Shown here: positions 28,398-54,318 of the stretch, in pieces | Layout of the letters: each line of letters starts with the position of its first letter | How positions within the stretch are numbered: position 1 is the stretch's first letter | DNA from: Minutocellus sp. GHC0000111 | Lineage: Eukaryota | DNA length: 64,000 bases | NCBI GenBank assembly: GCA_977018835.1 | Contig: OZ361258.1 | Span: 3,472,001 to 3,536,000 of the forward strand | Direction of reading: 5' to 3' | Notes under the pieces: model-generated | What the model was told of the DNA's origin: nothing | The model's input: the letters and a program-made list of their open reading frames with translations, nothing else | Databases searched by the model: none | Position numbers and translations under genes: made by a program

Positions 28398-31099
28398 TTA
28401 GGCACCCCACCAGCTACACGTCCAGCAATTCACCATCTCTCCAAAGGAATTAGCCGGAGCGGCATCACGATCCTCGGCATCAACGACAATGGGTTCCTTG
28501 CCAGCGAAAGTGTCCCATGATGCAGCTTGAGGTTTATTGCCGCTTTCAATGTCGTCGCTACCACTGGGCTCCGGGAGGTTCTGCAAGCCAATTTCCTCCC
28601 TCTGCACATCGTCGAGGCGTCTCCTGTCGCGCCTCTTCTTTCCAACGACTACTAGAAGAAGACCAACAAGAAGGACGCAAGCTACCATGGCAATGATGGG
28701 TACGCCACTGAAACTGGCACCATTGGAAGTCATGGCTTCATAGGTGTTACTAATCGCAGCATTGACACTGCTCAAAATGCCACCTTCACTGGCACTCTGC
28801 TCTTCGTTGACCTCCTCAACAGCAGCAATGATAGTACCGGTAGAAGGAGCATCTCCATCGTCGGCGCCGGGGGCGCGAGTGTCATCGCCCTGCTCGTCGT
28901 TGGCCCCTTTATTGGTGACAATAGTAGTAGTACTAGTATTAGTACCGGCGGTGTTGGCAGTGCTGGTAACCTTGGTAGACTTTGAAGCTTTAGGAGTATC
29001 TTCGTTGTCGACGGTGCGAGTGGCAATGCTCTCGGCGGTGGCGGCGGTATCGGTAGACTTGACAGACTTGGGAGTTTTCGTCGTTGCAGGAGGGGTAGCG
29101 GTGGGGGCAGCTCCGTTGTCGACGGTGCGAGTGGCGACGCTCTCGGCGGCGGCGGCGGTATCGGTAGACTTGACAGACTTGGGAGTTTTCGTCGTTGCAG
29201 GAGGGGTAGCGGTGGGGGCAGCTCCGTTGTCGACGGTGCGAGTGGCGACGCTCTCGGCGGCGGCGGCGGTATCGGTAGACTTGACAGACTTGGGAGTTTT
29301 CGTCGTTGCAGGAGGGGTAGCGGTGGGGGCAGCTCCGTTGTCGACGGTGCGAGTGGCGACGCTACCGTCGGTACCACTCTCGGCGGCGGCGGCGGTATCG
29401 GTAGACTTGACAGACTTGGGAGTTTTCGTCGTTGCGAGTGGCGACGCTATCGTACTGCTTGTCGTCGGCTTCTTTAGCAGTACCCTTATCAGCAAGGGCC
29501 GACTTGCCGGTGCTGGTCTCGGCTTCTTTAGCAGTACCCTTATCAGCAAGGGCCGACTTGCCGGTGCTGGTCTCGGTAGTCTTAGACTTGGGAGATTTTC
29601 CTTGACTAGGAGTAGAAGGAGCATCATCTCCATTGTCAGTGCGAGTGGCGAGGCTACCCTCGGTAGCGGTGGCGGTGGTAGTACCCTTGGGCGCCTTCAT
29701 CGTTGTGGAAGCAGTATTTCCATCGTCGGTACGTGTTGCGACACCCTCGGTAGCGGTGGCGGTGGTAGTACCCTTGGGCGCCTTCGTCGTTGTGGAAGCA
29801 GTATTTCCATTGTCAGTGCGAGTGGCAAGGCTACCCTCGGTGGCGGTGGCGGTGGCGGTGGTAGTACCCTTGGGCGCCTTCGTCGTTGTGGAAGCAGTAT
29901 TTCCATTGTCAGTGCGAGTGGCGAGGCTACCCTCGGTGGCGGTGGCGGTGGCGGTGGTAGTACCCTTGGGCGCCTTCGTCGTTGTGGAAGCAGTATTTCC
30001 ATTGTCAGTGCGAGTGGCGAGGCTACCCTCGGTGGCGGGTGGCGGTGGTAGTACCCTTGGGCGCCTTCGTCGTTGTGGAAGCAGTATTTCCATTGTCAGT
30101 GCGAGTGGCGAGGCTACCCTCGGTGGCGGTGGTAGTACCCTTGGGCGCCTTCGTCGTTGTGGAAGCAGTATTTCCATTGTCAGTGCGAGTGGCGAGGCTA
30201 CCCTCGGTGGCGGTGGCGGTGGCGGTGGTAGTACCCTTGGGAGATTTGCCACCTTCACCTTCACCGGTACGTGTGACGACACCCTCGGTAGCGGAGGCGG
30301 TGGCGGTAGTACCCTTGGGAGATTTGCCACCTTCACCTTCACCGGTACGTGTGACGACACCCTCGGTAGCGGTGGCGGCGGTAGTACCCTTGGGAGATTT
30401 GCCACCTTCACCTTCACCGGTACGTGTGACGATGCCATTGTCCATGCCACCCTCTGCCTTAGCGGCCTTGGGAGATTTGCCACCTTCACCTTCACCGGTA
30501 CGTGTGACGATGCCATTGTCCATACCACCCTCTGCCTTAGCGGCCTTGGGAGATTTGCCACCTTCACCTTCGCCGGTGCGATTGCCACCGCCCATACCAC
30601 CCTCTGCCTTGGCGGCCTTGGGAGATTTGCCGGCATCTACACCTGCGCCACCGGTGCGGTTGCCACCGCCCATGTTATCACCCTCTCCCTTGGCAGACTT
30701 GGGAGATTTGCCGGCAGCTCCGTTGCCGGCGTCGGTGCGAGTGCCGACGCCAATGTCAACACCTTCGGCACCGTCGGCAGCACCATCTGGACCCTTGGCA
30801 GACTTGGACGATTTGCTGCCATTCACAATGCCGTTGCGATTGAAGTCCGCGTTGCCGTTGAAACCGGCACCAGGACGGCCGGCAAAGAATCCATCGGGAG
30901 TCAAATCCTCCATGTAGCCATGGCCGAGGAGGTAGCCCTCCTTCGTCCGGTCGCCGTTGGGCTTGCCATGATCTTGCGTCTGGTAGGAGTGGTAGGGCTT
31001 GTTGGGGTAGATGAGCGTTTCGGTGGCATCGACGGAGGTTGCCGAAAGGGTGGCAGCGGAGACGACGAGGGCCGCGAAGGTTGCGGCGGGAAATCTCAT
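28398..31099 (-). CDS. Secreted, single-pass membrane KXXK/Thr-rich tandem-repeat protein, paralog B; two frame breaks (about 30037 and 29435)
   Basis: Signal peptide; N-terminal LIYP..HGK..G.R..EG.LLGHGYM.DL shared with paralog A; KSPK/KAAK/KAPK/KSVK repeats spread over three frames; TM GVPIIAMVACVLLVGLLLVVVG-KK and AGKEP motif shared with A. Confidence 0.7.
29005..30640. repeat. Coding minisatellite arrays: about 111-bp units (29.0-29.43 kb), a 51-bp duplication (about 29.47-29.57 kb), about 87-96-bp units (29.63-30.24 kb) and about 72-75-bp units (30.24-30.6 kb)
   Basis: TCGGTAGACTTGACAGACTT recurs at 29050, 29161 and 29272 (111-bp period); the other blocks are near-identical direct repeats. 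Confidence 0.9.
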
Positions 31100-31792
31100 T
31101 TTCTATTTATTGTATGTGAAGCGTTAGCGTTTGTCTGTGTATGTGCTGTGATCAGTATTGTATGTATTGATCTGCGATGTGTGTATCTTGTGCGATCCGA
31201 TCGGTGACAATGCAAATCAGTACAATAATTGCAGCGCTCCCTTCGTTCTGGGTCGGGGCGGTGGAAAAGTGAGCCCACGCAAAGCACAGTGAAACGAGGC
31301 GACGGTCGTCGCCATCCTCCAGGAGGCGGGTCGACGTGTCAGCTTTCACGTCGCCGCCTTCCGTTGCAAAAACCATGTCCCAGATGAGTGCGGATGCACC
31401 GCCCCATGCGTTGGGGACATTTTGACCCAGGAGCACACCTGTTCTAATGGTTCCATAGCGCGATGCCAACAGCCGTCGCCATCATTGGAACCTTCCGCCG
31501 CGCGCTGGCGTGCGTTGGGCAAGCAAGCGTGCCATGGGTTGGGGTCGGATTTATTTTGGCGGCCTGCGGCAGAGAGGCCGGGCAGGCTTGCTCGGCGAGG
31601 TTGGAACAGCTCGTTTGTATCTGGGGAAAACAGGACTCACTCGACTTGTTTATTTTTCAATATCCGTTGGTAGTGTGACTCATAACCTATTGAATCCACC
31701 GCTGTTCCTTCCTTCCGCCCCGCTGGATTTGCCTCGCTTACTTTTGCGTGTTGTTGTTGTTTAGTAACTATCCGCTCGCAAGCTTCCCAACC

Positions 31793-36834: not shown

Positions 36835-38871
36835 CTACTGATCATACTGCCTATCTGGTACAAAGTACTGTCGATATCGTCGCAGTATCTCTCTCTTTAC
36901 GTCATCGTCGTCCTTCTTTGTGTTGGGATGGAGAACCAGATCGTGCGCGCAAAGAGCCCCCCGTTCGGCGATCTGTCTGGCCTCCTTGTCATTGTCCCTC
37001 ATCCATTGGACCATTTCTTCGACATTTGTCAGGTTGCGGTGGAGGGGGATGTAATGGGTCCAGGGCTCTAACCACTCCTCCATTGCCCAGCTTGTTCGTT
37101 CTGGGGGTGGCATCATGACCACCGATCGCGACAACAAGGACCATCGCAGGCCGGTGGCCAGATCATTTCCCTCCATGACAATCAGTGCCTTGTACTGCAG
37201 CTGCTCCTTGTAGGTCATTTTCTTGTTTCCTTTGGTGAACAGCTTGGCATTTGGTAGATCATCCATCGGCACGTCAACTACTCTCGTAAGGCGAGCATCG
37301 ACCAGCTTGGACTTGTCGTGCAGCATGACGAGACGACAGCGTGGGATGCGGTCGCACACCTCCTCATCAGACATGACCTTGCGATCGAACTTCTCTCGCG
37401 CTCCCGTCAGTGCTCCCCGCCAAAAGGCCACATCTTTCTTCTTTTTCCATGGTATGTCATCCCTCAGAACTTCCTCGAGAGGTTCGTTGCTTCTCGACGA
37501 ATGAAAGTCCCACACTATCGGAGAGTAGTCCTCAAAGGTCCAATCGACCGTCTGCAATGGCAAACGCGGTACGTGCAGATGAAGAGGATGGCAGGCATCG
37601 GAATGTGGCTCGGTAACATCGGCCGCCGCCGCTCCCGTCGGTGGCGTCGTGGACCGAGCCTCAACATTCAGAAATGGATCGATCGACGCCGACGCGATGG
37701 CATTCTTCCTCGAAACAGCCTCGGCGGCAATCCTCGTCTTGCCAATGATGGGCAGATCGCACAGCACCCCCAGGGTATCTCCGAAGCGCACAATGACGGG
37801 CGTTCGGGTGTTCCGTATGTCGACGAATCCCCCCGTCCTCTTGTCCAGCATGGCCTCCACGACGAGCTTGAGATCTTGATCCCTGGGATCGTACCCGTAG
37901 GCAATCTGCTTGCGCATCTGCAGTCCCGTGCGGGCATACAGGGTCAAATCTCCCGATCGAACTTTGCCGCCGTCATCGTCAATATGCTGCGTCCTGTCCC
38001 CATCCAATGCATCAACAATATCGAGCATCTCCAACGCATCTCGACAGTACGGGGCATGGTGGTTTTGTCGGGGCGGTGTGTCGGCACACTTGGCCACCAA
38101 GTCGCGATCCAAAACGTACAAATTGTGCTTCTCATAATCCTTGGGGGTGGACGTTTCCACGTCGGTACTCAAAACAATGTCGTGACAGGCATCCCCGGAG
38201 GCATAGTGCATCGGCCCGTCCAGCGACACCTCGGCGACGAAGTTGATGGTCATGTTGGGCTGAAAGTTGGGCCGCTGGGACCACGTTTCCAGGTCGGGAT
38301 ACTCGTATCGGTAGTGTATCCTGTCTTCCGCGGTTGGTTCGCGGTAATACATATTGCTGGTCGACTTTCGTCTCATCCTGCGCTTGCTGCCTCCACCACT
38401 GACATCACGGGGAACGTAGCGACACGGCGGGACGTACCAGTTACTCATGTAGATGCGGACGCGCTCGTCGACGGAGGGGAAACGCTCGGAGCGCAGACGG
38501 GGGTGCCACGAGCGGTGCAAGTACGATAGCTCGTGCCGGACGACGTGGTCGAGCCGCCCGTGCGAATGGTGATGATGATTGCGCCGGCTGGTGATTAATA
38601 TTATGGCGCCGACAATGGCGGAAAGGCCAGCTACCGCACCGCATGCTTTGGTGCGGCATCGACTCGAAGGGAGCGAACAGTAAGAACGCAATGACGGGAG
38701 CCTGTTGCTCCGGTGGAATTCCTTGGATGCCGATGAGGACGACGACGCGCTGCTGCCGCCAGGAGGCCACGCTCTCGGCCTCATCTCATCGCCCGCGAGG
38801 AGGCCGTTCATATCCGCGTTGCTACCGCTTCGGCGGGTACTGGTGGGCATGGCTGGAGGGAACTTGCTCAC
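36835..38871 (-). CDS. Glycosyltransferase family 90 (CAP10/POGLUT-like), type II membrane protein
   Basis: N-terminal TM; RFPSVDERVRIYMSNWY, DIPWKKKKDVAFWRGALTG, QLQYKALIVMEGNDLATGLRW, SWAMEEWLEPWTHYIP. Confidence 0.88.
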   Translation of the reverse strand: MSKFPPAMPTSTRRSGSNADMNGLLAGDEMRPRAWPPGGSSASSSSSASKEFHRSNRLPSLRSYCSLPSSRCRTKACGAVAGLSAIVGAIILITSRRNHHHHSHGRLDHVVRHELSYLHRSWHPRLRSERFPSVDERVRIYMSNWYVPPCRYVPRDVSGGGSKRRMRRKSTSNMYYREPTAEDRIHYRYEYPDLETWSQRPNFQPNMTINFVAEVSLDGPMHYASGDACHDIVLSTDVETSTPKDYEKHNLYVLDRDLVAKCADTPPRQNHHAPYCRDALEMLDIVDALDGDRTQHIDDDGGKVRSGDLTLYARTGLQMRKQIAYGYDPRDQDLKLVVEAMLDKRTGGFVDIRNTRTPVIVRFGDTLGVLCDLPIIGKTRIAAEAVSRKNAIASASIDPFLNVEARSTTPPTGAAAADVTEPHSDACHPLHLHVPRLPLQTVDWTFEDYSPIVWDFHSSRSNEPLEEVLRDDIPWKKKKDVAFWRGALTGAREKFDRKVMSDEEVCDRIPRCRLVMLHDKSKLVDARLTRVVDVPMDDLPNAKLFTKGNKKMTYKEQLQYKALIVMEGNDLATGLRWSLLSRSVVMMPPPERTSWAMEEWLEPWTHYIPLHRNLTNVEEMVQWMRDNDKEARQIAERGALCAHDLVLHPNTKKDDDDVKREILRRYRQYFVPDRQYDQ

Positions 38872-39059
38872 TCGCCGGGGATGTAAACTAAACGACTCGA
38901 CTCGACCTCATTAAAGCCGGGCGGGGATCGGGAGGCCAGTTTCGAAGTTCGAAAGTTAGACAGTAGCGCGCGCGGCGGGAAGGGACGGTAAAGGCCGCGG
39001 GCACGTTTCTTCGTTCAGAGTTCTTTTAAGTTTTTGTAAGAAAAACACTCTAATCTTTG

Positions 39060-39262
39060 TTTTGGCGATTTCGCGCGCGATTTTTGTGTGAAGCGCGCGT
39101 TTTTCCGCGGATCACGCGCGAATTTTCGCGGATTCGCGCCGGTCTTGGTTGTGTGTGCATCGCGTTTTTTCGCGGAACGCGCGCGATTTTTAGCGATTCG
39201 CGCGCTTTTTTTGCGTTTTGCGCCGCGCTTTTCCGCAATTCGCGCCGCGCTTTTTCGCGGAT
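39060..39262. repeat. Degenerate tandem repeat of about 19-20 bp, (CGCG..TTTTT..CGCGG), very CpG-rich
   Basis: About ten alternating CGCG blocks and T-tracts, non-coding, just upstream of the retroelement. Confidence 0.75.
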
Positions 39263-39392
39263 AAGTAGAGTGTCTGGAGTTTTTGTGATTGCACAAAAAT
39301 CCCAAATAAAACTAGTGGCAACGGAGATTGCCGTCCCTTCCGGCGCGCGCGGGGGCCCGCCACTGAGCGACACGTCAAAACGATAGTGAAGG

Positions 39393-39866
39393 TGTCATAT
39401 CGAAAGCCAACACAGTGAGCCGCCGGCGAAAGCGCAAAGAAACCACAAGAAGACCGTCCGTCGACGGAGATCTAGAGACGCGCCTAGATCTCCGCCGCAG
39501 ACTCCACATGTGCATGGAGGAATCCTAGCAACGTAGATCTGTCCACAACCCTGGTTAAATCTAGCATGTTTATACTGAACAGAATCCTGCCTCGGTTTTG
39601 ACCTACCAAATGAGTTTTATTTCTCATCCTCTCTCTTGGTCGAACGACACCACCAAACCTTCTGTGCAATTGTTGATGCCGTGGGATACGTACGTACGTA
39701 TACATACGTACGGTACGTACGGTGATCAGACCACTGACTCAGTGCCCTCTCCTGACCGTTGATCCATGGGCCAACGACATCTCCGATGGCCCATTTTTCA
39801 TCTACGCAGGTCCTATTAACCTCTACTAGCTATGTCTGTCTAGCTTAGCTTTAGGACCTCTTAGCA
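39393..39866 (+). repeat. Possible 5' LTR of the copia element (boundaries uncertain)
   Basis: Starts TGT, ends CA, lies about 300 bp before gag, contains an 11-bp hairpin (39465-39494) and a (TACG)n tract; there is no second copy in the window to confirm it. Confidence 0.3.
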
Positions 39867-40162
39867 GACCTACGTGATACATCTTTTCCACCCGTGCTCG
39901 CCCCATTTCGGTTGGTTCGCACCTCACCGGTTTGTCTTGGGTTCTCACTCGTCACGCAAGAAAAACCGACACATCTTCAATCGGCCAAAACGACCGTTTC
40001 TTTCGACAATATTGGAACGACGATCCAATCCCTTCCCCGAAAGTCCTGACCAGATCGACCCATCCAATCGATCACACTTCTCTGGATCGAACCTTCTGTC
40101 GATCACACGTCTCGCACAGCAACGCCGCCGTGCTGCCTGTCTTCGCTGACTGAAACACCAGC

Positions 40163-41446
40163 ATGAATCCCGACGCAGTTTTTGGCCAACCTCTCGGCGC
40201 AGCGCAGATTCTCCCCACCAAGTTAATCACACGTATGAATGACCCAGGACAACCTCCCCAATGCGAGCGTGTTGCCAAAGCGCTCAAGGAACTTCAACAA
40301 GCAAGCGGCGGCCAGCATTCCAGCAGAGGAGGGTGCAATGACCATGGCCTCGGCCATTTGGGCCTCGTCGTCAGCGATGCCGAATGCACCACCAAAAGTA
40401 ACGGCCGACCACATGTGCCTCCGGCAAATCCTGGCCCCAGCCCCACCATTCCCGCCGTGGCCAATCTAGACCAACGCGATCGTGCAATCCGGGGACATTA
40501 CATCGAAAAGGGCCACCACAACTTGCACGAGCAAGTCAACACGGCGCTCAAGAATCTCCTCCTCGACTCGATCGACGCCGTCTACATCAATCATCTCAAA
40601 GATGACATGCTCGGTTTCCAGCCAGTCACCATCCGCCACATCATCGACAGCATTACCGATCGCTACTTGAAATTCAACGAGACTCAGAAGGAGGAATTAG
40701 AGAAGCAGCTCGAGAAGCAGCACGACGGGGGACCCATCGACACCCACATCGCCATGTTCAACAAAGACTTCAAGGCGTTTGAAACGGCCGGCGAACCCTT
40801 CACCAACAAGCAAAAGGTCTCCAAGTTCTACCGCTCCGTGCGCAGGTTCTCATTGGCAAAGAAGGCATGCGAGGACTGGGACGACAGACCGGAGGCCGAA
40901 CGCACGTGGGCCAACATGCAGTCGGACTTCCGCGATTGGCATGATAAGAAGATGGCCAACACCACCGAAGCGGCAGGACATCATGGCGCGAACTTGGCCT
41001 CATCGGCCTCGGACGATCCATTTCTTTCTCGAGCCGATCTCCTTTTGGCTGATGCCACCGAAGCCCTCAAGACCAACCAAGCCATGATGGCGAACCTCGC
41101 CAAAAAGAACGAGAAGGATGATGCCATTGCCAAACTTCGCCAAGAAATAGCTTCACTCAAGGCCGAGAACCGCGTTCTGCGTGAGGGACGCAACCATGCT
41201 GGTGGCAGTGGAGGCTACCGCGGCGGTGGCCAGCAGAACGGCGCCGGCCACTTCCCAGGCCAAGGTCCTAACCTCAACCGCCAGGAGAAGCGGGAACTGC
41301 AGTCGATCCTCCCCAGAGGCCATTGTTGCCACACGTGCGGCTATTCGTCCAACCACCCCAGCTTTGAATGCACTTGCAAAGGGCCCAACCACGTTGATAA
41401 CGCCACCAAGTGCAATCCTTGCAGTGGCAGCTCGCGTCGTAACTGA
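40163..41446 (+). CDS. gag: Retrotransposon Gag
   Basis: GHLGLVVS..E, PANPG, DWDDRPEAERTWAN (CoDi-type gag), C-terminal Cys/His knuckle CHTCGY..H.S.EC....PNH. Confidence 0.82.
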   Translation: MNPDAVFGQPLGAAQILPTKLITRMNDPGQPPQCERVAKALKELQQASGGQHSSRGGCNDHGLGHLGLVVSDAECTTKSNGRPHVPPANPGPSPTIPAVANLDQRDRAIRGHYIEKGHHNLHEQVNTALKNLLLDSIDAVYINHLKDDMLGFQPVTIRHIIDSITDRYLKFNETQKEELEKQLEKQHDGGPIDTHIAMFNKDFKAFETAGEPFTNKQKVSKFYRSVRRFSLAKKACEDWDDRPEAERTWANMQSDFRDWHDKKMANTTEAAGHHGANLASSASDDPFLSRADLLLADATEALKTNQAMMANLAKKNEKDDAIAKLRQEIASLKAENRVLREGRNHAGGSGGYRGGGQQNGAGHFPGQGPNLNRQEKRELQSILPRGHCCHTCGYSSNHPSFECTCKGPNHVDNATKCNPCSGSSRRN

Positions 41447-44400
41447 GCGGGAGGGACGGTGGATGTTAATCAGTGTAAAACAGAGGACAGCATGTCTGAA
41501 TCCACCTCCTCCCCGCCTTCGTTAGCTTTTCTTACGTCAAAAAGCAAACCTCCAACTCAAGAGCCAATCGTCCTCGCAGCAGATGCTGGAACGACGGGAC
41601 ATTTTGTCCAGAAGCCCCAACACCTGTCGCACGATGGCCCTGTTTTCAACGTCCAACAGACAGCAATTCCTATCAGCGTCACCCTTCCGGATGGCAGCAC
41701 AATGACGAACACCCACGAGGCCACGCTTCGCCTCCCTGGGGTTTCCCCATCGGCTAGCAAGGCCTACATTTTCAATAACATGGCATCATCGCTCCTGTCG
41801 ATTGGGCAGCTGTGTGACGATGGATGTGTTGCCACTTTCGATAAGGATTCGGTAGTCATCGCTAAGGACAACACCGTCATTTTGCAAGGCAAACGAGACC
41901 CCTCAACGAAATTGTGGATGGTAGATCTTAATTGCTCGCCCACCATGTCGCCGCTCCCCGGCCCCAACGTCATCCAACATGCTGCCAACGCCGCAATTGC
42001 CCAGGAGACGGTTCCGGAACGTGCAGCCTTTTTACATTGGTGCGCTGGCAGTCCTCAGCTATCTGCCTGGTGCAAAGCAATCGATGCGGGATTTTGTAGA
42101 TCTTGGCCAGGCCTCACACCAAAGCTTGTACGTAAGCACATGCCACAGTCGATGCCGATGATTAAAGGTCACTTAGACCAGCAGCGCAAGAACATCAGGT
42201 CGACCAAGCCCAAACGGTCGATGGCTACGCCAAAATCTCTCCCTGGGGTGGACGAAACCGAGCAGGATCTCCACCCGGCACAACACCAACAGCGCACCAA
42301 CTATGTCTTTGCTGATTGTCATGACACAACGGGCCAGATCTTCTCAGATCAGCCCGGCCGTTTCTTGGTGTCGTCTATTTCTGGCCACCAACACACAATG
42401 GTCGTCTGTGACCATGACTCCAACAGCATCTTGGCCGAACCAATGAAAAGCCGATCGGGAACGGAAATGCGCCGAGCGCACCAAACTGTTTTCGAATGCC
42501 TCTCCAAGCGAGGATTTCGCCCAAAATTGCAACGATTGGACAATGAAGTGAGTCGAGAGCTGAAGGAGTTCATGGAAGAAAAGGATGTAGATTTTCAATT
42601 GACCCCAACGCACTCCCACCGCCGAAATGCGGCCGAACGAGCCATTCGAACCTTTAAGAATCATTTCATTGCGACTCTCTGTGGCACCGATCCCGACTTT
42701 CCCCTCATCTTGTGGGACAAATTGCTGGAGCAGGCGGCAATGACCCTCAATTTCCTGAGAGCATCCCGAGTCAACCCTCGACTATCAGCGTGCGAGCAAC
42801 TCAATGGCGGCTTTGATTTCAATCGCACGCCTCTCGGCCCCCTCGGATGCAAGGTCATCTTTCACGAGATGCCCTCGGCACGCGGCTCTTGGTCCCCGCA
42901 TGGCGTTGATGGGTGCTATGTCGGTCCAGCCATGGAACACTGCCGGTGTTACAAGGTTTGGATTGAGGAAACTCGGGCGGAACGCACTGGCAACACACTC
43001 GTCTGGCTCCCCAAAATGATTCCGGCACCCAAAACGTCGTCGGCCGATGCAGCAACAGTCGCAGCTCATGAACTCCTGCACGCTCTACAGAATCCACATC
43101 CAGCGGCACCCCTTGCTCCCCTTCGAGACGAGCATCGTCAAGCTTTAGAAAAGCTCTCCGAGATTTTCAACAGCGTGACCCCAGCAGAATCTGCCACCTC
43201 CGCCTCTGATGAGACGATGCAGACAACCGCAGCTCCGAGGGTGCTGGAGAACGATGACGACTCCCAACGATTCCGCCTCGGTGCCATCGTCGCCAAAGTG
43301 TTTGGAGATCGCAATTACAAGGGCAGAGTCGTTGCATTTGACAAGAAGTGTAAGCACTACAAAATCAAATACGAGGACGACGACGTAGAAGAGATGAACG
43401 AGACTGAAGCAGGCCGTCACCTTGTCTCCAACCCCAACGCTCCGTTGCCTCAGCCCCAGCAACCTCCGAGGGTGGCAAAATCCTCCACATGTAATGCAGC
43501 CACCACTAAAAGCCGTCGATCACGTCGATCCAACGCGCCACCTCGCTCGTCAGTTTCTTCCAACTGCTACAATCCTTTGGCTGCAGCAGACGAGCCCAAC
43601 GGCGACGATGATGACAATCATGACGACGATGCAACCGTCGCAACATCCAATCAAAGTTCCAATGCCCCCACCTCCCGTCGGCAACGTAAACGCAAGTCTC
43701 CAACGATCGACACCACTCCAACATTACCAGCTCCAGCAAAATCGACAAGCAAGTCCAAACCATCGACCGCCAAACCACCTCGACGACGATCACACCGTCA
43801 GCGAGGGCACATTCCACATCGGAACCCTCCCCCACGGCCATCATCTCGTCGTAGCACCCACCACGTGGTTAACATGGCAGCTTTCTCGCCTTTACCAAAC
43901 CTCCAACACTTTGCTAACGCCGTCGTCCATCCCGATGCTGGTGCAATGCTTGAACACCGCGACCTCCTCAAAACGAACATGAGGGACCAATTCATTCAAG
44001 CAAACATTGATGAAATTGGACGGCTAACGGACGGCCGAGTTGGAAACAGTGCTAGCACTCCCTCCAACACAATGGCTTTCGTCCACTGGTCCGAACTGCC
44101 TCGGGGAAAAAAGCCACATGCCTCCGCATTGTCGCCGACTATCGCTCCCATAAACCAAATCCTAATCGAGTTCGATGGACTGCAGGAGGCGACAAAATTC
44201 ATTACCCTGGTGCAGTCTCGACCCCGACCGCTGAAATGTTGACTGCAAAGTTACTTTTCAACAGCGTCATCTCTACAGACAACGCTCGTTTCATGGGAAT
44301 TGATATCAGTGACTTCTATCTCAATGGCACCATGCCAGAGCCAGAATGGATGTGGGCGCCAGTAGCTCTCATCCCCGACGAAGTCATGGAAGCCTACGAC

Positions 44401-45285
44401 CTCCACGACAAAGTAAAGAATGGTCGAGTGTTGGTCAGAATCGATGGCGGAATGCATGGATTACCCCAGGCAGGGCGCCTAGCCTACGATCAACTTGTCA
44501 AGCATCTCAAACCCCATGGCTGTTTCCCTTGCAAGCGTGCTGCCGGCCTTTGGAGGCACAAAACCCGCCCAATTACCTTTTGCCTAACCGTTGACGATTT
44601 TGGAGTAAAGCATGTCGGGAAAGAGCATGCAGACCATCTCATTCAGGCCCTCAACTCCAAGCACAAGATCACTACCGATTGGGAAGGCCGACTTTATTGT
44701 GGTGTTCAACTCGAGTGGAACTACGAGGCCAAATGGGTGGATCTATCTATGCCTAACTTCGTCAAGGAGATGCGCCACAAGTTCCAACACGACCGCCCCT
44801 CACGGCCCGAGCATGCGCCACATCGATGGAATCGTCCGACGCATGGCCCGGGACCCCAGCTGCCAGAACCGGAAGACGACTCACCACCACTCGACGCCAA
44901 AGGCATCAACGAAATTCAACAGGTGGTGGGCAGCTCCTTGTGCTATGGTCGAGCAATTGATTCAACAATTTTACCGGCGCTCAATGGCATGTCTCAGCGG
45001 AACAATCCAAAGCTACCGAGCGCACTCGACAAGATGCCAAGAAGCTTCTAGATTGCCTTGCAACCCATCCCGACGCAGTCATTCGATGCGTCAAGTCAGA
45101 CATGATCCTACATGCACATAGCGACGCCTCCTGCTTGTCAGCCCCGAAATCAAGAAGCAAGCTCGGAGGGCACTTCTACCTAAGCTCCCGACCTAAGCAC
45201 CCGCACCGCCAGCCTGACTCAAGGGATCCCATGCCACCAATGAATGGAGCCATCCTCGTCAATGCCAATGTCATCAAGCATGTCT
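41447..45285 (+). pseudogene. pol: Retrotransposon Pol (PR-IN-Tudor-like insert-RT-partial RNase H), broken into three frames
   Basis: ORFs 41459-44242, 44236-45051 and 45102 onward join into a continuous copia Pol once two indels are corrected. Confidence 0.88.
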
Positions 45286-45828
45286 CTGGCGGTAAAACAG
45301 CACGCATGCACCAGCAGCATTTACGCCGCGAAAATGGCACTTCTGTTGCGGGCTCACAGCAGGAGTGTGCCATCATGACCGGCGTTGGAGCAACAATGGG
45401 CCGACGTTGGTCGACGCCAAGCAACAGCATGCAGCAGCGTCTCATCGTGTCAAAGCGGACGCGTTGGTTGTTCAGTGGATGCCGCACTTCAATGCTAATG
45501 GCCGGCATCCACTCCAGTGCCGTCGGTCCCCATAGCGCCCACAGCGCCCACAGCGCCTACAGCGCCCGCTCCCCAGCTCGCTCCTTTGGCTCATTGGCTT
45601 GGCTCTTGGCTCCCGGGCTCCCGCTCCGCTCTTTGCGGATGCATCCGGATGCCTTTACCCAAATTTGACACGTCAACATGCATCGATGGTTCTGGTGCCG
45701 GCAGGGAACGGCCAAGCTTCTCACATGGACGTGGTCCATCCTCAATTGACGTGTTCCGGCCACCAGGTCAGTCAATCCCGGCCAATCCGGCCACGTCGGC
45801 TCTCGCCCATTGCTGTATTGCTGTGTGG

Positions 45829-45989
45829 CGGCAGGTCATTCTGTTTTGTCCCCGCCGAAACCTGCCGAATGACTTGCCGCTTTGCGCCCGGTAGGCAAGC
45901 AAATCTCGGGAAAACGTCATATTTGCGTCAATTCGAAAGAAATTGCACAATGACCTGCCGCGAGAGAAAATGCAAGTTTGGCAGGTCAT
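45829..45989. repeat. Cluster of direct and inverted AATGACCTGCCG motifs, possibly the subterminal region of a DNA transposon
   Basis: Reverse-complement copy 45829-45840, AATGACTTGCCG 45868-45879, AATGACCTGCCG 45949-45960, reverse-complement GGCAGGTCAT 45980-45989. Confidence 0.55.
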
Positions 45990-46565
45990 CGAATATCCAT
46001 CGGTGCTCCACGCCTTCGACTACGGTTCCTCGCCTCTACCCCCTGTGCTGTGGTAGAATCCACACAGTTCCCATTTATGATCTCACAATTGGAATTGGCT
46101 GCCTTTTGTAAAGCAAACCCGAGGTGAGCACGTGAATGTTTTTGGTCTGATATTATGATGTGACATCGCTACGTGCGCTGTCGCGGTAGTCAACTCGTTG
46201 GGAGTTCTGCCATCGTTCCGACTTGGATCGGCTCTCACGACGACGAAGTAGGCCACGAAATCGTTTTGTGCTTCCTCATCCTTCTTCATTGAATGCGTCG
46301 CATTCCATGGCGTACATGTACATGTATCTCGCTCCCAAACACATCACATCTCGCATGATATTTCGTCTACTTATATTTTCACTCAGACGAGCACAACAGC
46401 CTCGCGACCGCATTGCCGATTGATCTCATCTGTGCCACCCCTGGCATACTGACTTGTATTTTCCCCACACTTCCCACTAATTCATCTCGTTCGCCCGTCT
46501 AGCGCGAGGTGCATTCTTCGCCGTTCGCTCCTCGGTTCAATCCAGCAAGGAAGTCAACCACGACC

Positions 46566-47197
46566 ATGAAGTTGAATTTGCCCATCGTTTTCCTCGCCCT
46601 ATCGATCCCTACCGCCGTCGTGACCGCCTCCTCCGGGCGTCTGCACAGCGGAGGAGTCAAATCGATTCAGGCAGAGAAGGCATCTGCCACCGAGACCCAG
46701 GCCGTCCATTCCCTCGAGACCAAGGTGCGTTGCTTGTGTGTATGATAGGGTGACATGCCACCGTGCGTGCAAAAAGTTTTGTGCTACTTTCGAATTCGGC
46801 AGTTTGCTGGTTTTGTGTGCTTGGTCAAGTCAAGTGGGGTTTGGAATGAATTATGCATGTGTTGGAACGAGGGCGATTGTGGGCCACACGCCTCCCCTGG
46901 CACACGCCGATTTGTATATTCATACGAACAATCGATCCCTTGTATGGCCTCGAAATGGGTGTCGTATCTTGGTTTTACATTCTTGCATGTGATGTGAAAT
47001 CGTCTTTCTGTCGCCGTCATAACTCATGATCATCATCGCATCGTCGGCAATTTGCCTCATTCTCTGCGTAGACCGCCGCAGCTCACCTGCCTCTGCTTTC
47101 GCTCTACTCTTACCGCTCTGTCCCGCCCCACTCTGCCACCACTTATTATATTTCACCACGATGTCGCCCAGTCTGATGCCGGCCGTGTGCTGCTGCT

Positions 47198-47228
<31 letters not shown>

Positions 47229-50200
47229 CAGCGCACTCTGACGGGCTTTCCCTCGTGGTTCCCTCCCTCGACGGCGGGAGGAGATGCGAGAACTGGAACA
47301 ACGTTTGCCGCACGGGCTCGAGCCCCAACAACGGCTGCGCTCAGGTGTGCACCCCGCCCGATGGAGTGTGTTCCTGTGGGTGGGGCTACTCCCTCGATGC
47401 CGACGGCAAGAACTGCGTTGCAAGTGGCGAAGCCAACGTCGCGCCGGGGAGACCATCGTCCTGGATACCGACGCCTTCCCCGCCGGTTACTCCTTCAGCT
47501 CCCTGGCCGTTGCCCAGGGCGGTGTCCTCACCGCCACGGGGTCCAATCCGCTCATCATTACGGTCGACACGTCCGTGGACATCCAGGGCCACATCAATCT
47601 CAATGGCGGCAAGGGTGGCAACTCGGCCGGAGATCACAAGGCCGCCGGTGGCGGTGCCGGTGGAGGCGCTCTGCGCATTCAGGCCGCCACCATCAATGTC
47701 GGTTCCAGCGGTGCCATCACCGTCGATGGAGGAGACGGCGGAGACGGCGGCGCAGATGGCCAGGGTTTCTTCCCCAACTCCTACTCCGATGAGGTTGCCG
47801 GGGATGGTTCCGGTGGTGTTGGCATCGCCGGGGGATTCAATGGTGGCGCTGGTGGCGCATCGAATCAGGATGGCTTTCCGGGAGAGGGACCAGGAGCCTC
47901 TCAGGGCAGTCCCACCAGCGGTGGAGTGCCGCCTGGAGCGGGAGGTGCCGGCCACGCCTGGTACGTTGAACATGGTGTGAAACTGTTGGTATTGTTCGCT
48001 TGATTTTTGTTATCTCAAATCGTAGCACCAACAGCCTGGATTGACGATTCATGTATTTGCCATGTTCCATTCATTCATTCATTCATTCATTCATTCATTC
48101 ATTCATTCATTCATTCATTCATTCATTCATTCATTCATTCATTCATTCATTCATTCATTCATTCATTCATTCATTCATTCATTCATTCATTCATTCATTC
48201 ATTCATTCATTCATTCATTCATTCATTTCATTCATTCATTCATTCATTCTTCTTCTCCTCCACAATGGCGGTGCCAGGAGCTTTTGGCAGTATGCAGGGA
48301 TACCTCAGCCAGGTGGTCCGAAATATAATGACAAGGATCTATCGTTGGGCCTCTATGGTGGCAGTGGTGCCGGAGGTGGTGGCAACGATGGTGACAATGA
48401 GGAAGGAGCCGGAGGTGGAGGCTCGGGAGGAACGATTCATCTTATCGCCACTACTATCCAGATTGACGGCGCTGTCACCGCCAACGGTGGCCTCGGCGGC
48501 AGAGATGACTACCATTACAATGGAGGTGATAGAGAGTGTTGTAACAATGGCGGTCCTGGTTCAGTGGGCCGAATCAAGCTCGATTACAGCAGTCTGACGG
48601 GCAACCTCGCCAGCATCTTCCCGCTGGCCAATGCGGAACCAACTCCTGATATCTGCCACGCCACGGCAAATCAAGATACTGCAACGGACGCCCCTCAGCT
48701 TGCTGACCCTGTCCCACCTACCGATCAGTGTGCCACAAGCAACAATGGCTGTGAACAGCTTTGCTCTAGTCCCTATGGCACCTGCTCTTGCAATGCCGAA
48801 TATGCTCTGAATTCTGATGGCAAGACGTGTTCGATCATCGATCAATGTGCCACAAACAATAACGGCTGTGCCCACGCATGTAGCAGTCCCGCTGGAGCCT
48901 GTTCTTGTAATTCCGGCTATCTTCTGGGTTCTGATGGGAAGAGTTGTGATGACATCAACGAATGTGATACCAACAACGGCGGTTGCGACGCCAATGCTTC
49001 CTGTCAGAATACTGCTGGCGGCTTCACCTGTAGTTGCAACTCTGGATTTGCTGGCGATGGCAACAGCTGTACCGACATCGACGAATGCTCAGATGGCACC
49101 GATAATTGCCACGCCAATGCTTCTTGTCAGAAACCATCGGTGGCTTTACCTGCACATGCAACTCAGGATATGCAGGGGACGGCGTATCTTGCTCGGTAAG
49201 CTCATGAATATGACATGATGCGATATCGATCCATCACTCCCCACATATTTATTTTATGCTACATCCAACCTCACGTTTTAATGCATATCACTTTCCCCCC
49301 ACTTACCTGTCCAGGACATCAACGAATGTGCCGATGGTACCCACAGCTGTGACGCCAACGCTTCGTGTGAGAATTCCCCAGTTGGTAGCCATTCATGCAC
49401 ATGCAATTCGGGTTACGAAGGCAATGGCAACACTTGTACTGACATCGATGAGTGTGCTACAGACAATGGTGGTTGTGCCCATATTTGTACCGACACGGAT
49501 GGTAGCTTCGAGTGCTCGTGTCGAGCCGGGTACGCCCTTGACGACAATAGCTTTGGCTGCTCTACCATTTATATCGGGGCTGGCCAGACTCTTCCTGAGG
49601 CCGAGACGGCTTCGATTGAGGCCGCCAATACCGTTACTACCTTCTTCACCGCTCGCTCGGCATACGAGGTTGCCAGCCACAATCTTGATGTTGCTACTAC
49701 TGAACTTGACGATGCCACTACTGCCCATGACGAGGCTAAGGACAAAACCTTTGCGCTCACCAAGGCGTACGAACAGGCTGCTGCCTACGAAGCCACCATG
49801 AAGAAGGCATTCGATGATGCCAAAACTCGCGCCGACGCCTCCGATGCTAGCGCGGCCGAGCGATACCGTCTCCTCATCGAGGCCGAGATTGCCTACAACG
49901 AGGCTGCCGCCGTCAGCGCCAAGGCCGAGGAAGCCAAGGAAGCTGCCGAGTCTGAAGAGTCGGCTGCTGCTTCAGTTTTGGCCGAAGCTACCGCCGCCAA
50001 GGATCAGGCTACCACTGCTGAGGCTGCGGCCAAGACAGCCCTTGATTCCGAGCTGGCCGACGTCAATGCCAATGCTCTCATCCCGAAGATCAACCCCGCC
50101 ACCCTCGATTTTCCCTACGTTGATACGGACGGCGATCTGATTCCCAACGACTTTGATGCCTGTCCTACTCAGATGGGTCTTCGTCGCAACACCGACGATC

Positions 50201-53079: not shown

Positions 53080-54318
53080 GGAAGTAATTATATGTATGTG
53101 TGTATGTTAATGAGGGCATCGCATGTGATATATTGTTCGCTCTTTGCGACCCTCTTGAAGTAGATCTATCGAATGCTCCTGTGTCTTCTGAATCTACATG
53201 TACACAACACAAATTTTGAGGAGATTTTTGTCAAATTTAAGACTCTTTCTGATTCTACGAAGCTAGACTCTACTACATGTGCTGTAGACATAGATACTAG
53301 TAGCTAGCTAGAGAGCTTGGTACAATATGACACCCTCTTCTCTCTCTCTTTCTCGCCTTTTCTTTCGATTGACACGCGACTCACAAGGTATCGGTCGATG
53401 CCAAGGTGCACACCGACCGCGCTACTAGCCAATTCACGAATGAGGAAGGGCATAGATTGAGACAAGACGAAATCAACTCTAACTAGCTAGCTACGTAGCT
53501 AGATAGTACTTCACCCCAGGTATCATGCGATGCAGATAGATAGTCGATGCAGATGCAGGCAAAAGGCAGCAGCGGCTCTCACCGTCGAACGAGGACACGA
53601 TGTTCTTCAATGGGCCAATGGCTACATGTAGGAATTCCTACAGACACCTGTGCCACAAGGCGGCTTGCTGCAGTGCCGTTCAATGTCCACCTCCATTTCA
53701 CCAGTGCCTTCGGCGCTCAGTGGCGTGGCGGCGCGACCCTCCAGCTCCCAGCTCGCTGGCTGTGCTGTGGTCACTAGTTTTAGTGCTTGTGTGCTTGGCG
53801 GCCATCGAGCAGCGAGCTTAGAAGCTACGTCATGAAGAAAGTCGCGACACTTTCACGTTACAGCCCTACACAATGGCCCTTCAAGACGAGAGACTCTGAC
53901 GTATGTCCTAAAAAAACACTACTTGTCGCAGCGACAATGGCCTGTGCAGTTTTACAGACGACGCGACGACGACGCCACATCGGCACTCGGCACTTGAAGG
54001 CACTTTCATCGAATTATCTTTCTGGTGGACGGCCGGTCCCCGCATCCTCAAAGGATCCTGCATTAGATTTTCCAGAGAGTTCAGCAGATCGGCAGATCGG
54101 AACAGCGCATGCAGAAATCTTTTCCCCGGCTCTCTGTGCTGCGCTGCTCTGCTCTACTACATGTTGTGACTTCAAGAAGGTTCCTTGTCGTTCCTCACCC
54201 TCGTTCTACGTTTCTGCGTTCGCATGATTGACCATCGCAAAGCAAGAAAAGACCACACGAAGTAAGCGGTAACGTAATCGCGCATGACCGATCGATCCTG
54301 TCAGCAGCAGCAGGCAGA

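Follow-up and report, generated by a model that had tools for sequence, protein, structure and literature searches.

Loss of TpA dinucleotides marks both a retrotransposon at this locus and the non-coding DNA on its 3′ side, which raises the question of whether a mutation process acting on mobile DNA has spread from the element into the host chromosome. The locus lies in a 64,000-nucleotide stretch of DNA, here called the window. In the preliminary description of this stretch, ~500 bp of the flank were read as depletion continuing from the element, and a 9-bp tandem array within them as a record of independent TA>CA changes. The host is diatom-like: every named organism among the relatives of a host gene is a diatom, as are the named homologues of the reverse transcriptase (RT) of the element, which has 1074 homologues at E ≤ 1e-30.

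The element is a multicopy Ty1/copia LTR retrotransposon on the forward strand (39671–45283), hypermutated at TpA and truncated at its 3′ end. Its edges are marked by the loose ends of public-run contigs at 39671 and 45283 of the window, and the summed contig depth over it is 50–200x that of the flanking DNA. Both a copia-type RT and a TG...CA LTR are present, the RVT_2 match in pol (E = 5.6e-6, 26.6 bits) falling under the curated cut-off of 31.6. The 5′ LTR (39671–39866, forward strand, 196 bp) is delimited by its sequence ends and by a contig loose end at 39866. Self-comparison of the window found no second LTR, so that this Copia lacks the usual pair of LTRs with a target-site duplication, as its truncation explains. 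A gag-like open reading frame (40163–41446, forward strand), so labelled from its position, matched no gag family; its TGA stop at 41444–41446 stands in frame with pol, an arrangement that suggests stop read-through. The pol region (41447–45283, forward strand) contains a Tudor-like domain and the RT and is disabled by two frameshifts and many changes of Tyr to His or Cys. Within the pol reading frame, the Tudor-like domain (PF21743, E = 1e-11) lies 5′ of the RT at ~43280–43410.

The broken end at 45283 falls inside RNase H, and other copies of the family run on past this position. One contig in each of four public runs (X1, X2, X4, and X8) reaches 45283 from identical non-element sequence, and an X3 contig passes from 39670 through ~350–360 unaligned bases to 45283, with no LTR sequence in between. 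From these element-free contigs leading into 45283, we therefore infer that the allele of the window arose by insertion of the Copia followed by a deletion. The DNA from 45284 on would then be pre-existing, single-copy host DNA 5′ of a gene with EGF and thrombospondin repeats.

Within the Copia, TpA is hypermutated to CpA and TpG on both strands, and a different subset of sites is changed in each copy. The copy-by-copy mutation proposed in the preliminary description is thus borne out. The changes are A>G and T>C transitions at TpA that focus on mobile DNA and, on small numbers, spare host genes. At 44650–45283, exchanges among TA, CA, and TG account for 15 of the 16 transitions listed (9 of 10 dinucleotide sites), and all three states are found among the copies at several sites. 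In a 10-kb alignment of public-run contigs, for which 40 of 182 difference rows were listed, 10 of the 12 listed Copia sites with C or G in the window and T or A in the reads are TA-type; over this alignment, X1 differs from the window by C>T 51, G>A 43, A>G 16, and T>C 17. TpG and CpA products occur in the same DNA, and both His and Cys are found within single copies. None of the five differences listed for the GT90 gene (38000–38700) is TA-type, nor is any of those listed between the window and the element-free contigs for host DNA at 45801–46600, the numbers being small in both cases. Assembly error was considered and rejected, since three-state sites recur in independent runs and in Mb-sized contigs.

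Protein comparison gives the same picture. The window was compared with 15 family proteins, possibly derived from several assemblies, after removal of P0126, which does not differ from the window, and of columns with fewer than six sequences or less than 73% local identity. Of 172 cells in Tyr columns, 60 are changed, 59 of them by transitions that lead to His or Cys. Control columns are nearly invariant (Trp 0/94, His 0/121, Gln 0/95, Phe 1/94, Asp 2/231). The changes form a mosaic over the copies, with 31 of 36 character pairs incompatible with inheritance, a fit no better than that of shuffled data (mean 77%), and two copies are untouched, retaining Tyr at 9/9 sites. Among 80 metagenome Copia loci, a set biased to intact elements, His or Cys occupies 19 of 1112 conserved-Tyr cells. 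The observed/expected ratio (O/E) of TA is by itself a poor marker of the process, being 0.49 in the RT region of the window and lower in 3 of the 80 loci with intact Tyr. A Copia fragment of another metagenome (L058:1–1978) accounts for 7 of the 19 His or Cys cells; half of its 14 conserved Tyr are changed in this way, which is the signature of the process in a different organism.

The process has a sequence context. On the A-bearing strand, a pyrimidine follows TA (TA-Y) at 14 of 15 changed sites. Among surviving TA sites, RTAY makes up 6 of 98 in the interior of the element versus 175 of 570 in host non-coding DNA, and TAT, the most depleted context, 14% versus 28–31%. AA/TT steps are not depleted. 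The start of the LTR is an exception, as nine R-TA-Y sites survive in the first ~50 bp and the TA O/E of the LTR is 1.56. RTAY accounts for 9 of 19 survivors in the LTR versus the 6 of 98 in the interior (Fisher p = 3e-5), where the six are spread over 5.4 kb. The sparing of the LTR start shows that the mutation process depends on position, and a bound factor, open chromatin, or the CpG context are candidate causes of the protection. The nine RTAY sites sit in a TACG-rich array at 39686–39721.

Beyond the broken end of the Copia, the stretch at 45313–45815 is non-coding host DNA, GC-rich and TA-poor, its nature being indicated by single-copy depth and by orthologues in relatives (P0261–P0263). 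A recount returned exactly the 5 TA at 45301–45780 and 37 TA at 53101–53580 of the preliminary description, but the sevenfold contrast drawn from them is inflated by a comparator that is unusually TA-rich (GC 0.44, O/E 1.00; 24.4 TA expected from the host baseline). Set against a non-coding host baseline of 23 segments chosen by eye (12,684 bases, TA O/E 0.66), the flank (GC 0.60, TA O/E 0.26) retains a deficit of 5 TA vs 12.5 expected (Poisson p = 0.015), and it has 52 CA vs 34.0 (p = 0.002) and 35 TG vs 30.8 (p = 0.25), all for a region picked post hoc. The depletion is real and ~2.5-fold, not 7-fold. Low O/E does not single the flank out, as 46 of 1059 overlapping 480-bp spans over the 64 kb lie at or below 0.26, many of them coding, whereas a Markov test that sets a model of TpA erosion against one of a simple GC shift favours erosion. 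The log-ratio for the flank is 7.2–7.8 (9.4 without the array). For comparison, the highest value was 1.6 among 25 held-out non-coding windows and 4.8 among 300 simulations, and of 41 coding windows one scored at least 5, reaching 6.7. RTAY is absent from the flank vs 4.1 expected (p = 0.017), with none before 45815, and the RTAY-free run is unbroken from 44303 to 45815, spanning the Copia/host junction.

Six-frame Pfam and Rfam searches of the flank gave no match, self-comparison of the window revealed no second copy of the flank or LTR, the exact flank pattern had 0 matches in genome-contig and viral-contig collections, and comparison with the 80 metagenome Copia loci gave no match. A coding exon was rejected, as the relatives carry many frameshifting indels; X6 holds no RNA contigs over the flank, which counts neither for nor against coding. 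A repeat, considered for the fourfold depth of X3 at 45310–45671, was also rejected, as X1, X2, and X4 each have one contig at single-copy depth. Several copies of a GGCAGGTCAT-type motif, in both orientations, lie at 45828–45989, 5′ of the EGF/thrombospondin gene; the rest of the window has none, and they may form a factor-binding cluster. Other compositional features of the window are a second GC-rich non-coding stretch at 31228–31630, equally TA-poor and without CA excess, 5′ of ATP synthase alpha; a (CATT)45 microsatellite within the region of the EGF/thrombospondin gene, at 48068–48249; and long coding tandem repeats with periods of 78–153 bp and high TA content at 29003–30719.

Comparison with element-free alleles dates the depletion of the flank. 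Over 45313–45800, the differences from the window listed number 0 in X1, 1 in X4, and 2 in X2, with 1 in X8 up to 45549, where its piece ends. To 46600, X1 still has 0 listed, X4 and X8 have one non-TA change each, and X2 has four. At 45642, a site in the preferred TA-Y context, X2 has TA, and X1 and X4 share the CA of the window. No window-specific TA-type change vs X1 or X4 occurs at 45313–46600. Spreading at a 35% rate predicts 2.7 window-specific changes in 45295–45800 (P of none 0.07), where the zero observed is, taken alone, weak evidence against spreading; it predicts ~16 to 46567, and to that point there are again none vs X1 or X4. Since the element-free alleles share the depleted state, this Copia was not the source of most of the depletion, which beyond ~45312 is older than the insertion. 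The ~500-bp continuation is therefore not supported, the alleles without the element showing just the identity that the preliminary description had itself named as contrary evidence.

Relatives extend the comparison further back. P0261–P0263 are translations from short ENA contigs, with the underlying DNA deduced codon by codon, and are orthologous, indel-rich counterparts of the flank; in a diverged relative, conservation and synteny extend to 46248. P0263 differs from the window at 18 of 154 codons over 45336–45852, 2 of them TA-type, which is about chance level; therefore, it is composition that argues for an older erosion of the flank. If the flank was eroded, the erosion predates the split from these relatives. 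At 46151–46157, Tyr-Tyr of the window faces His-His of P0262; TA>CA differences in the intergenic region also run the other way.

The choice between older erosion and intrinsically GC-rich regulatory DNA is near even for this flank. That it was never eroded, and is ordinary promoter-like DNA 5′ of the EGF/thrombospondin-repeat gene, is given slightly less than an even chance; it is compatible with the explanation preferred below and would replace only its clause on older erosion. Conservation and synteny in a diverged relative, the similarly TA-poor stretch 5′ of ATP synthase alpha, the modest p-values of a region picked post hoc, and a TG count that is not in excess all agree with it. However, log-ratios of 7–9 lie well outside the ≤1.6 of the held-out windows, the lack of RTAY is not expected of such DNA, and the one TA/CA polymorphism, at 45642, falls in the preferred context. 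As the junction is secondary, the flank may have met the Copia after most erosion had ended.

The four-unit tandem array (45531–45566, forward strand; period 9 in TRF) reads exactly as first described, but its units cannot be taken as independent TA>CA changes from a TATAGCGCC ancestor. X1, X4, and X2 carry this array unchanged. At its position, P0261 and P0263 have a single unit, which is CACAGCGCC as deduced from His-Ser-Ala in P0261 and, in the neighbouring frame, Pro-Gln-Arg in P0263, assuming a unit common to both; this orthologous unit has C at both variable positions. Two C>T changes after a single CACAGCGCC unit had multiplied in this lineage would explain the array. The TATAGCGCC ancestor would need more events, all on one strand, together with parallel changes in the relative, which argues against it. 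The words of the flank read as eroded fared unevenly as well. Their supposed ancestors are not common elsewhere in the window, with 14 strand-matches for GTACGTA (7 in the Copia LTR) and 3 for TACCGGTA, and GGTGCCGGCA is the same in relatives, but CACGCATGCA at 45305–45312 does match TA in P0263.

These last positions belong to the host DNA at the deletion junction (45284–45312), which likely carries a cluster of TA>CA/TG changes. Each of the four element-free contigs has 3 differing letters beyond those listed, which are known by count only, and every difference row listed is, in one run or more, at least 31 letters away from an end. The unlisted letters would therefore lie within ~30 bp of the junction. 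The X3 piece at 45310–45671 has no difference from the window. Residues 1–11 of P0263 align to the window at 45302, ungapped and with 9 changes, a fit equalled at 10 of 63,966 positions. They imply TA at 45305, 45307, 45309, and 45312; the letters of the window there are CA, TG, CA, and CA, respectively, and TA-Y fits three of these four sites. A leak of ~30 bp past the broken 3′ end of the Copia is likely the simplest reading of these letters, and the three junction letters may possibly be scars of deletion repair instead.

The 5′ flank of the insertion provides further non-retroelement DNA. A stretch at 38967–39351, with terminal inverted repeats and internal 21-bp repeats that make it MITE-like, is replaced by 27 letters in the X1 and X3 alleles (contig joint 38973>39366). 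TA-type differences from other contigs occur within it at 39285, 39291, and 39294, of which the first and the last pair with each other in a hairpin (39275–39304). The flank at 39366–39670 is ~6% diverged from the element-free alleles with many indels (in X3, 17 letters and 26 gap letters), and its neighbours are nearly identical; TA-type differences are found at 39411, 39541, and 39580, where the window is changed, and at 39574, where the other allele is. Across 38974–39670, TA-type changes make up 7 of 13 transitions among the differences listed vs 16% expected (p = 0.002, or p = 0.007 with the hairpin pair merged), with some of these rows near indels, three from a probable paralogue, and one change in the other allele. 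All eight TA-type differences of the non-retroelement flanks (the seven here and 45642) are in TA-Y context. Together with the junction TA sites in P0263, these transitions indicate that the process is probably not limited to reverse-transcribed DNA, as had been suggested.

The explanation that we consider probable is that TA>CA/TG changes are made copy by copy and on both strands through post-insertion, regional editing with a preference for 5′-TA-Y-3′, likely by adenine deamination, and that this editing leaked ~30 bp into the host DNA here. The history of the locus might then have run as follows. The intergenic DNA would already have been rich in GC and poor in TA, perhaps through earlier activity of this process, and one CACAGCGCC unit would have expanded to four, two of which gained C>T changes. 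The Copia would then have inserted at 39671 and eroded in place. A deletion would next have removed its 3′ end along with ~350 bp of the host chromosome, so that RNase H came to abut 45284, after which a few TA sites beside the new junction would have been mutated. A bolder form of this explanation, to which we give slightly less credence than to its denial, is that a diatom adenine editor with a TAT>TAC preference acts on chromosomal domains and not on retrotransposition intermediates. Such an editor would erode copies independently, skip the LTR start, remain active after the deletion fusion, and stop within ~30 bp, and its older rounds would have scarred single-copy regulatory DNA and so reshaped host promoters.

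Adenine deamination on resident DNA is the favoured mechanism, by analogy with the alga Bigelowiella natans. TadA-type enzymes favour U-A-C. A thymine lesion or an error-prone polymerase in place of adenine deamination is unlikely. Candidate causes of this kind are oxidised thymine in R-TA and patch synthesis of the Pol-eta type. TA is strand-symmetric, so that TA-Y on one strand is R-TA on the other, and there are a few transversions at TA sites (e.g., Tyr>Phe at 44758), both of which would accommodate such an origin. However, 59 of 60 Tyr changes are transitions, and the retention of AA/TT steps does not resemble the broad WA signature of polymerases.

It is less likely still that the changes were made during retrotransposition, by A-to-I editing of RNA and editing or miscopying of cDNA, and not on the chromosome. 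The clearest signal is indeed that of a retroelement, and edits of RNA and of minus-strand cDNA would together give both directions of change. Yet the LTR start is spared despite passing through the same RNA and cDNA, and the differences in non-retroelement flanks share the TA-Y context. In addition, B. natans accumulates the same change in silent, single-copy integrated DNA during clonal growth (Mettrop et al., bioRxiv 10.64898/2026.01.13.699255). Spread of TpA mutation over ~500 bp from the Copia, with the four units changed independently from TATAGCGCC, is highly improbable, for although the RTAY-free run crosses the junction, the erosion score of the flank matches that of the most eroded Copia windows, and TA-type changes cluster at 45305–45312, alleles with neither Copia nor solo LTR share its letters beyond ~45312, the single unit of the relative has C at both places, and the six changes needed would all be T>C, the first-position change being the disfavoured product under the TA-Y rule.

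Within the searched literature, a TpA-removing mutator has been reported in one 2026 preprint, for a rhizarian alga, and the Copia locus is a further instance; the search, with subscription journals outside its coverage, found no paper on TpA hypermutation in diatoms. According to the preprint, TpA>TpG/CpA changes affect integrated NCLDV and virophage DNA of B. natans at a rate raised ~1000-fold in clonal lines, and an ADAT2-like deaminase was proposed (Mettrop et al., bioRxiv 10.64898/2026.01.13.699255). As described there, the two systems share a restriction to TpA>TpG and TpA>CpA, action on both strands, a regional pattern aimed at foreign or mobile DNA, and a direction against the usual GC>AT bias. 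RT domains are enriched among the TpA-depleted sequences of B. natans, and the Copia likewise bears an RT. In contrast, the host here is a diatom-like stramenopile and the target is a multicopy LTR retrotransposon, in which the changes prefer TA-Y (TAT>TAC), leave the LTR start intact, and have an edge that could be mapped; the words 'diatom', 'flank', 'spread', and 'context' are absent from the main text of the preprint.

The element itself resembles the diatom Ty1/copia elements known as CoDi, having a TG...CA LTR (196 bp, within a reported range of 153–844), two ORFs, a copia-type RT, and insertion polymorphism between strains, but, unlike them, this copy is 3′-truncated and dead (PMC2806351). 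A comparison with repeat-induced point mutation (RIP) of ascomycetes is also instructive. Both processes destroy repeat copies singly through dinucleotide-specific transitions, but RIP makes TpA from CpA, whereas TpA is lost and not gained at this locus; RIP is moreover bound to sexual recombination and duplication (PMC9970103). RIP also requires RID. Diatom DNMT4 is related to RID (PMC9998398), but a cytosine methyltransferase would not explain the loss of TA. With respect to duplication, two copies of the Copia family are unmutated at 9/9 Tyr sites. RIP is known to leak into flanks. Here, the element-free alleles bound the leak to tens of bases, and they advise caution, in that TA-poor flanks and variants of tandem repeats alone do not prove spreading. 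The locus adds population-level evidence from a diatom-like host, in the form of three-state sites among copies, and its TA-Y fingerprint narrows the candidate enzyme. A mutator that strips TpA from mobile DNA would be the mirror image of fungal RIP.
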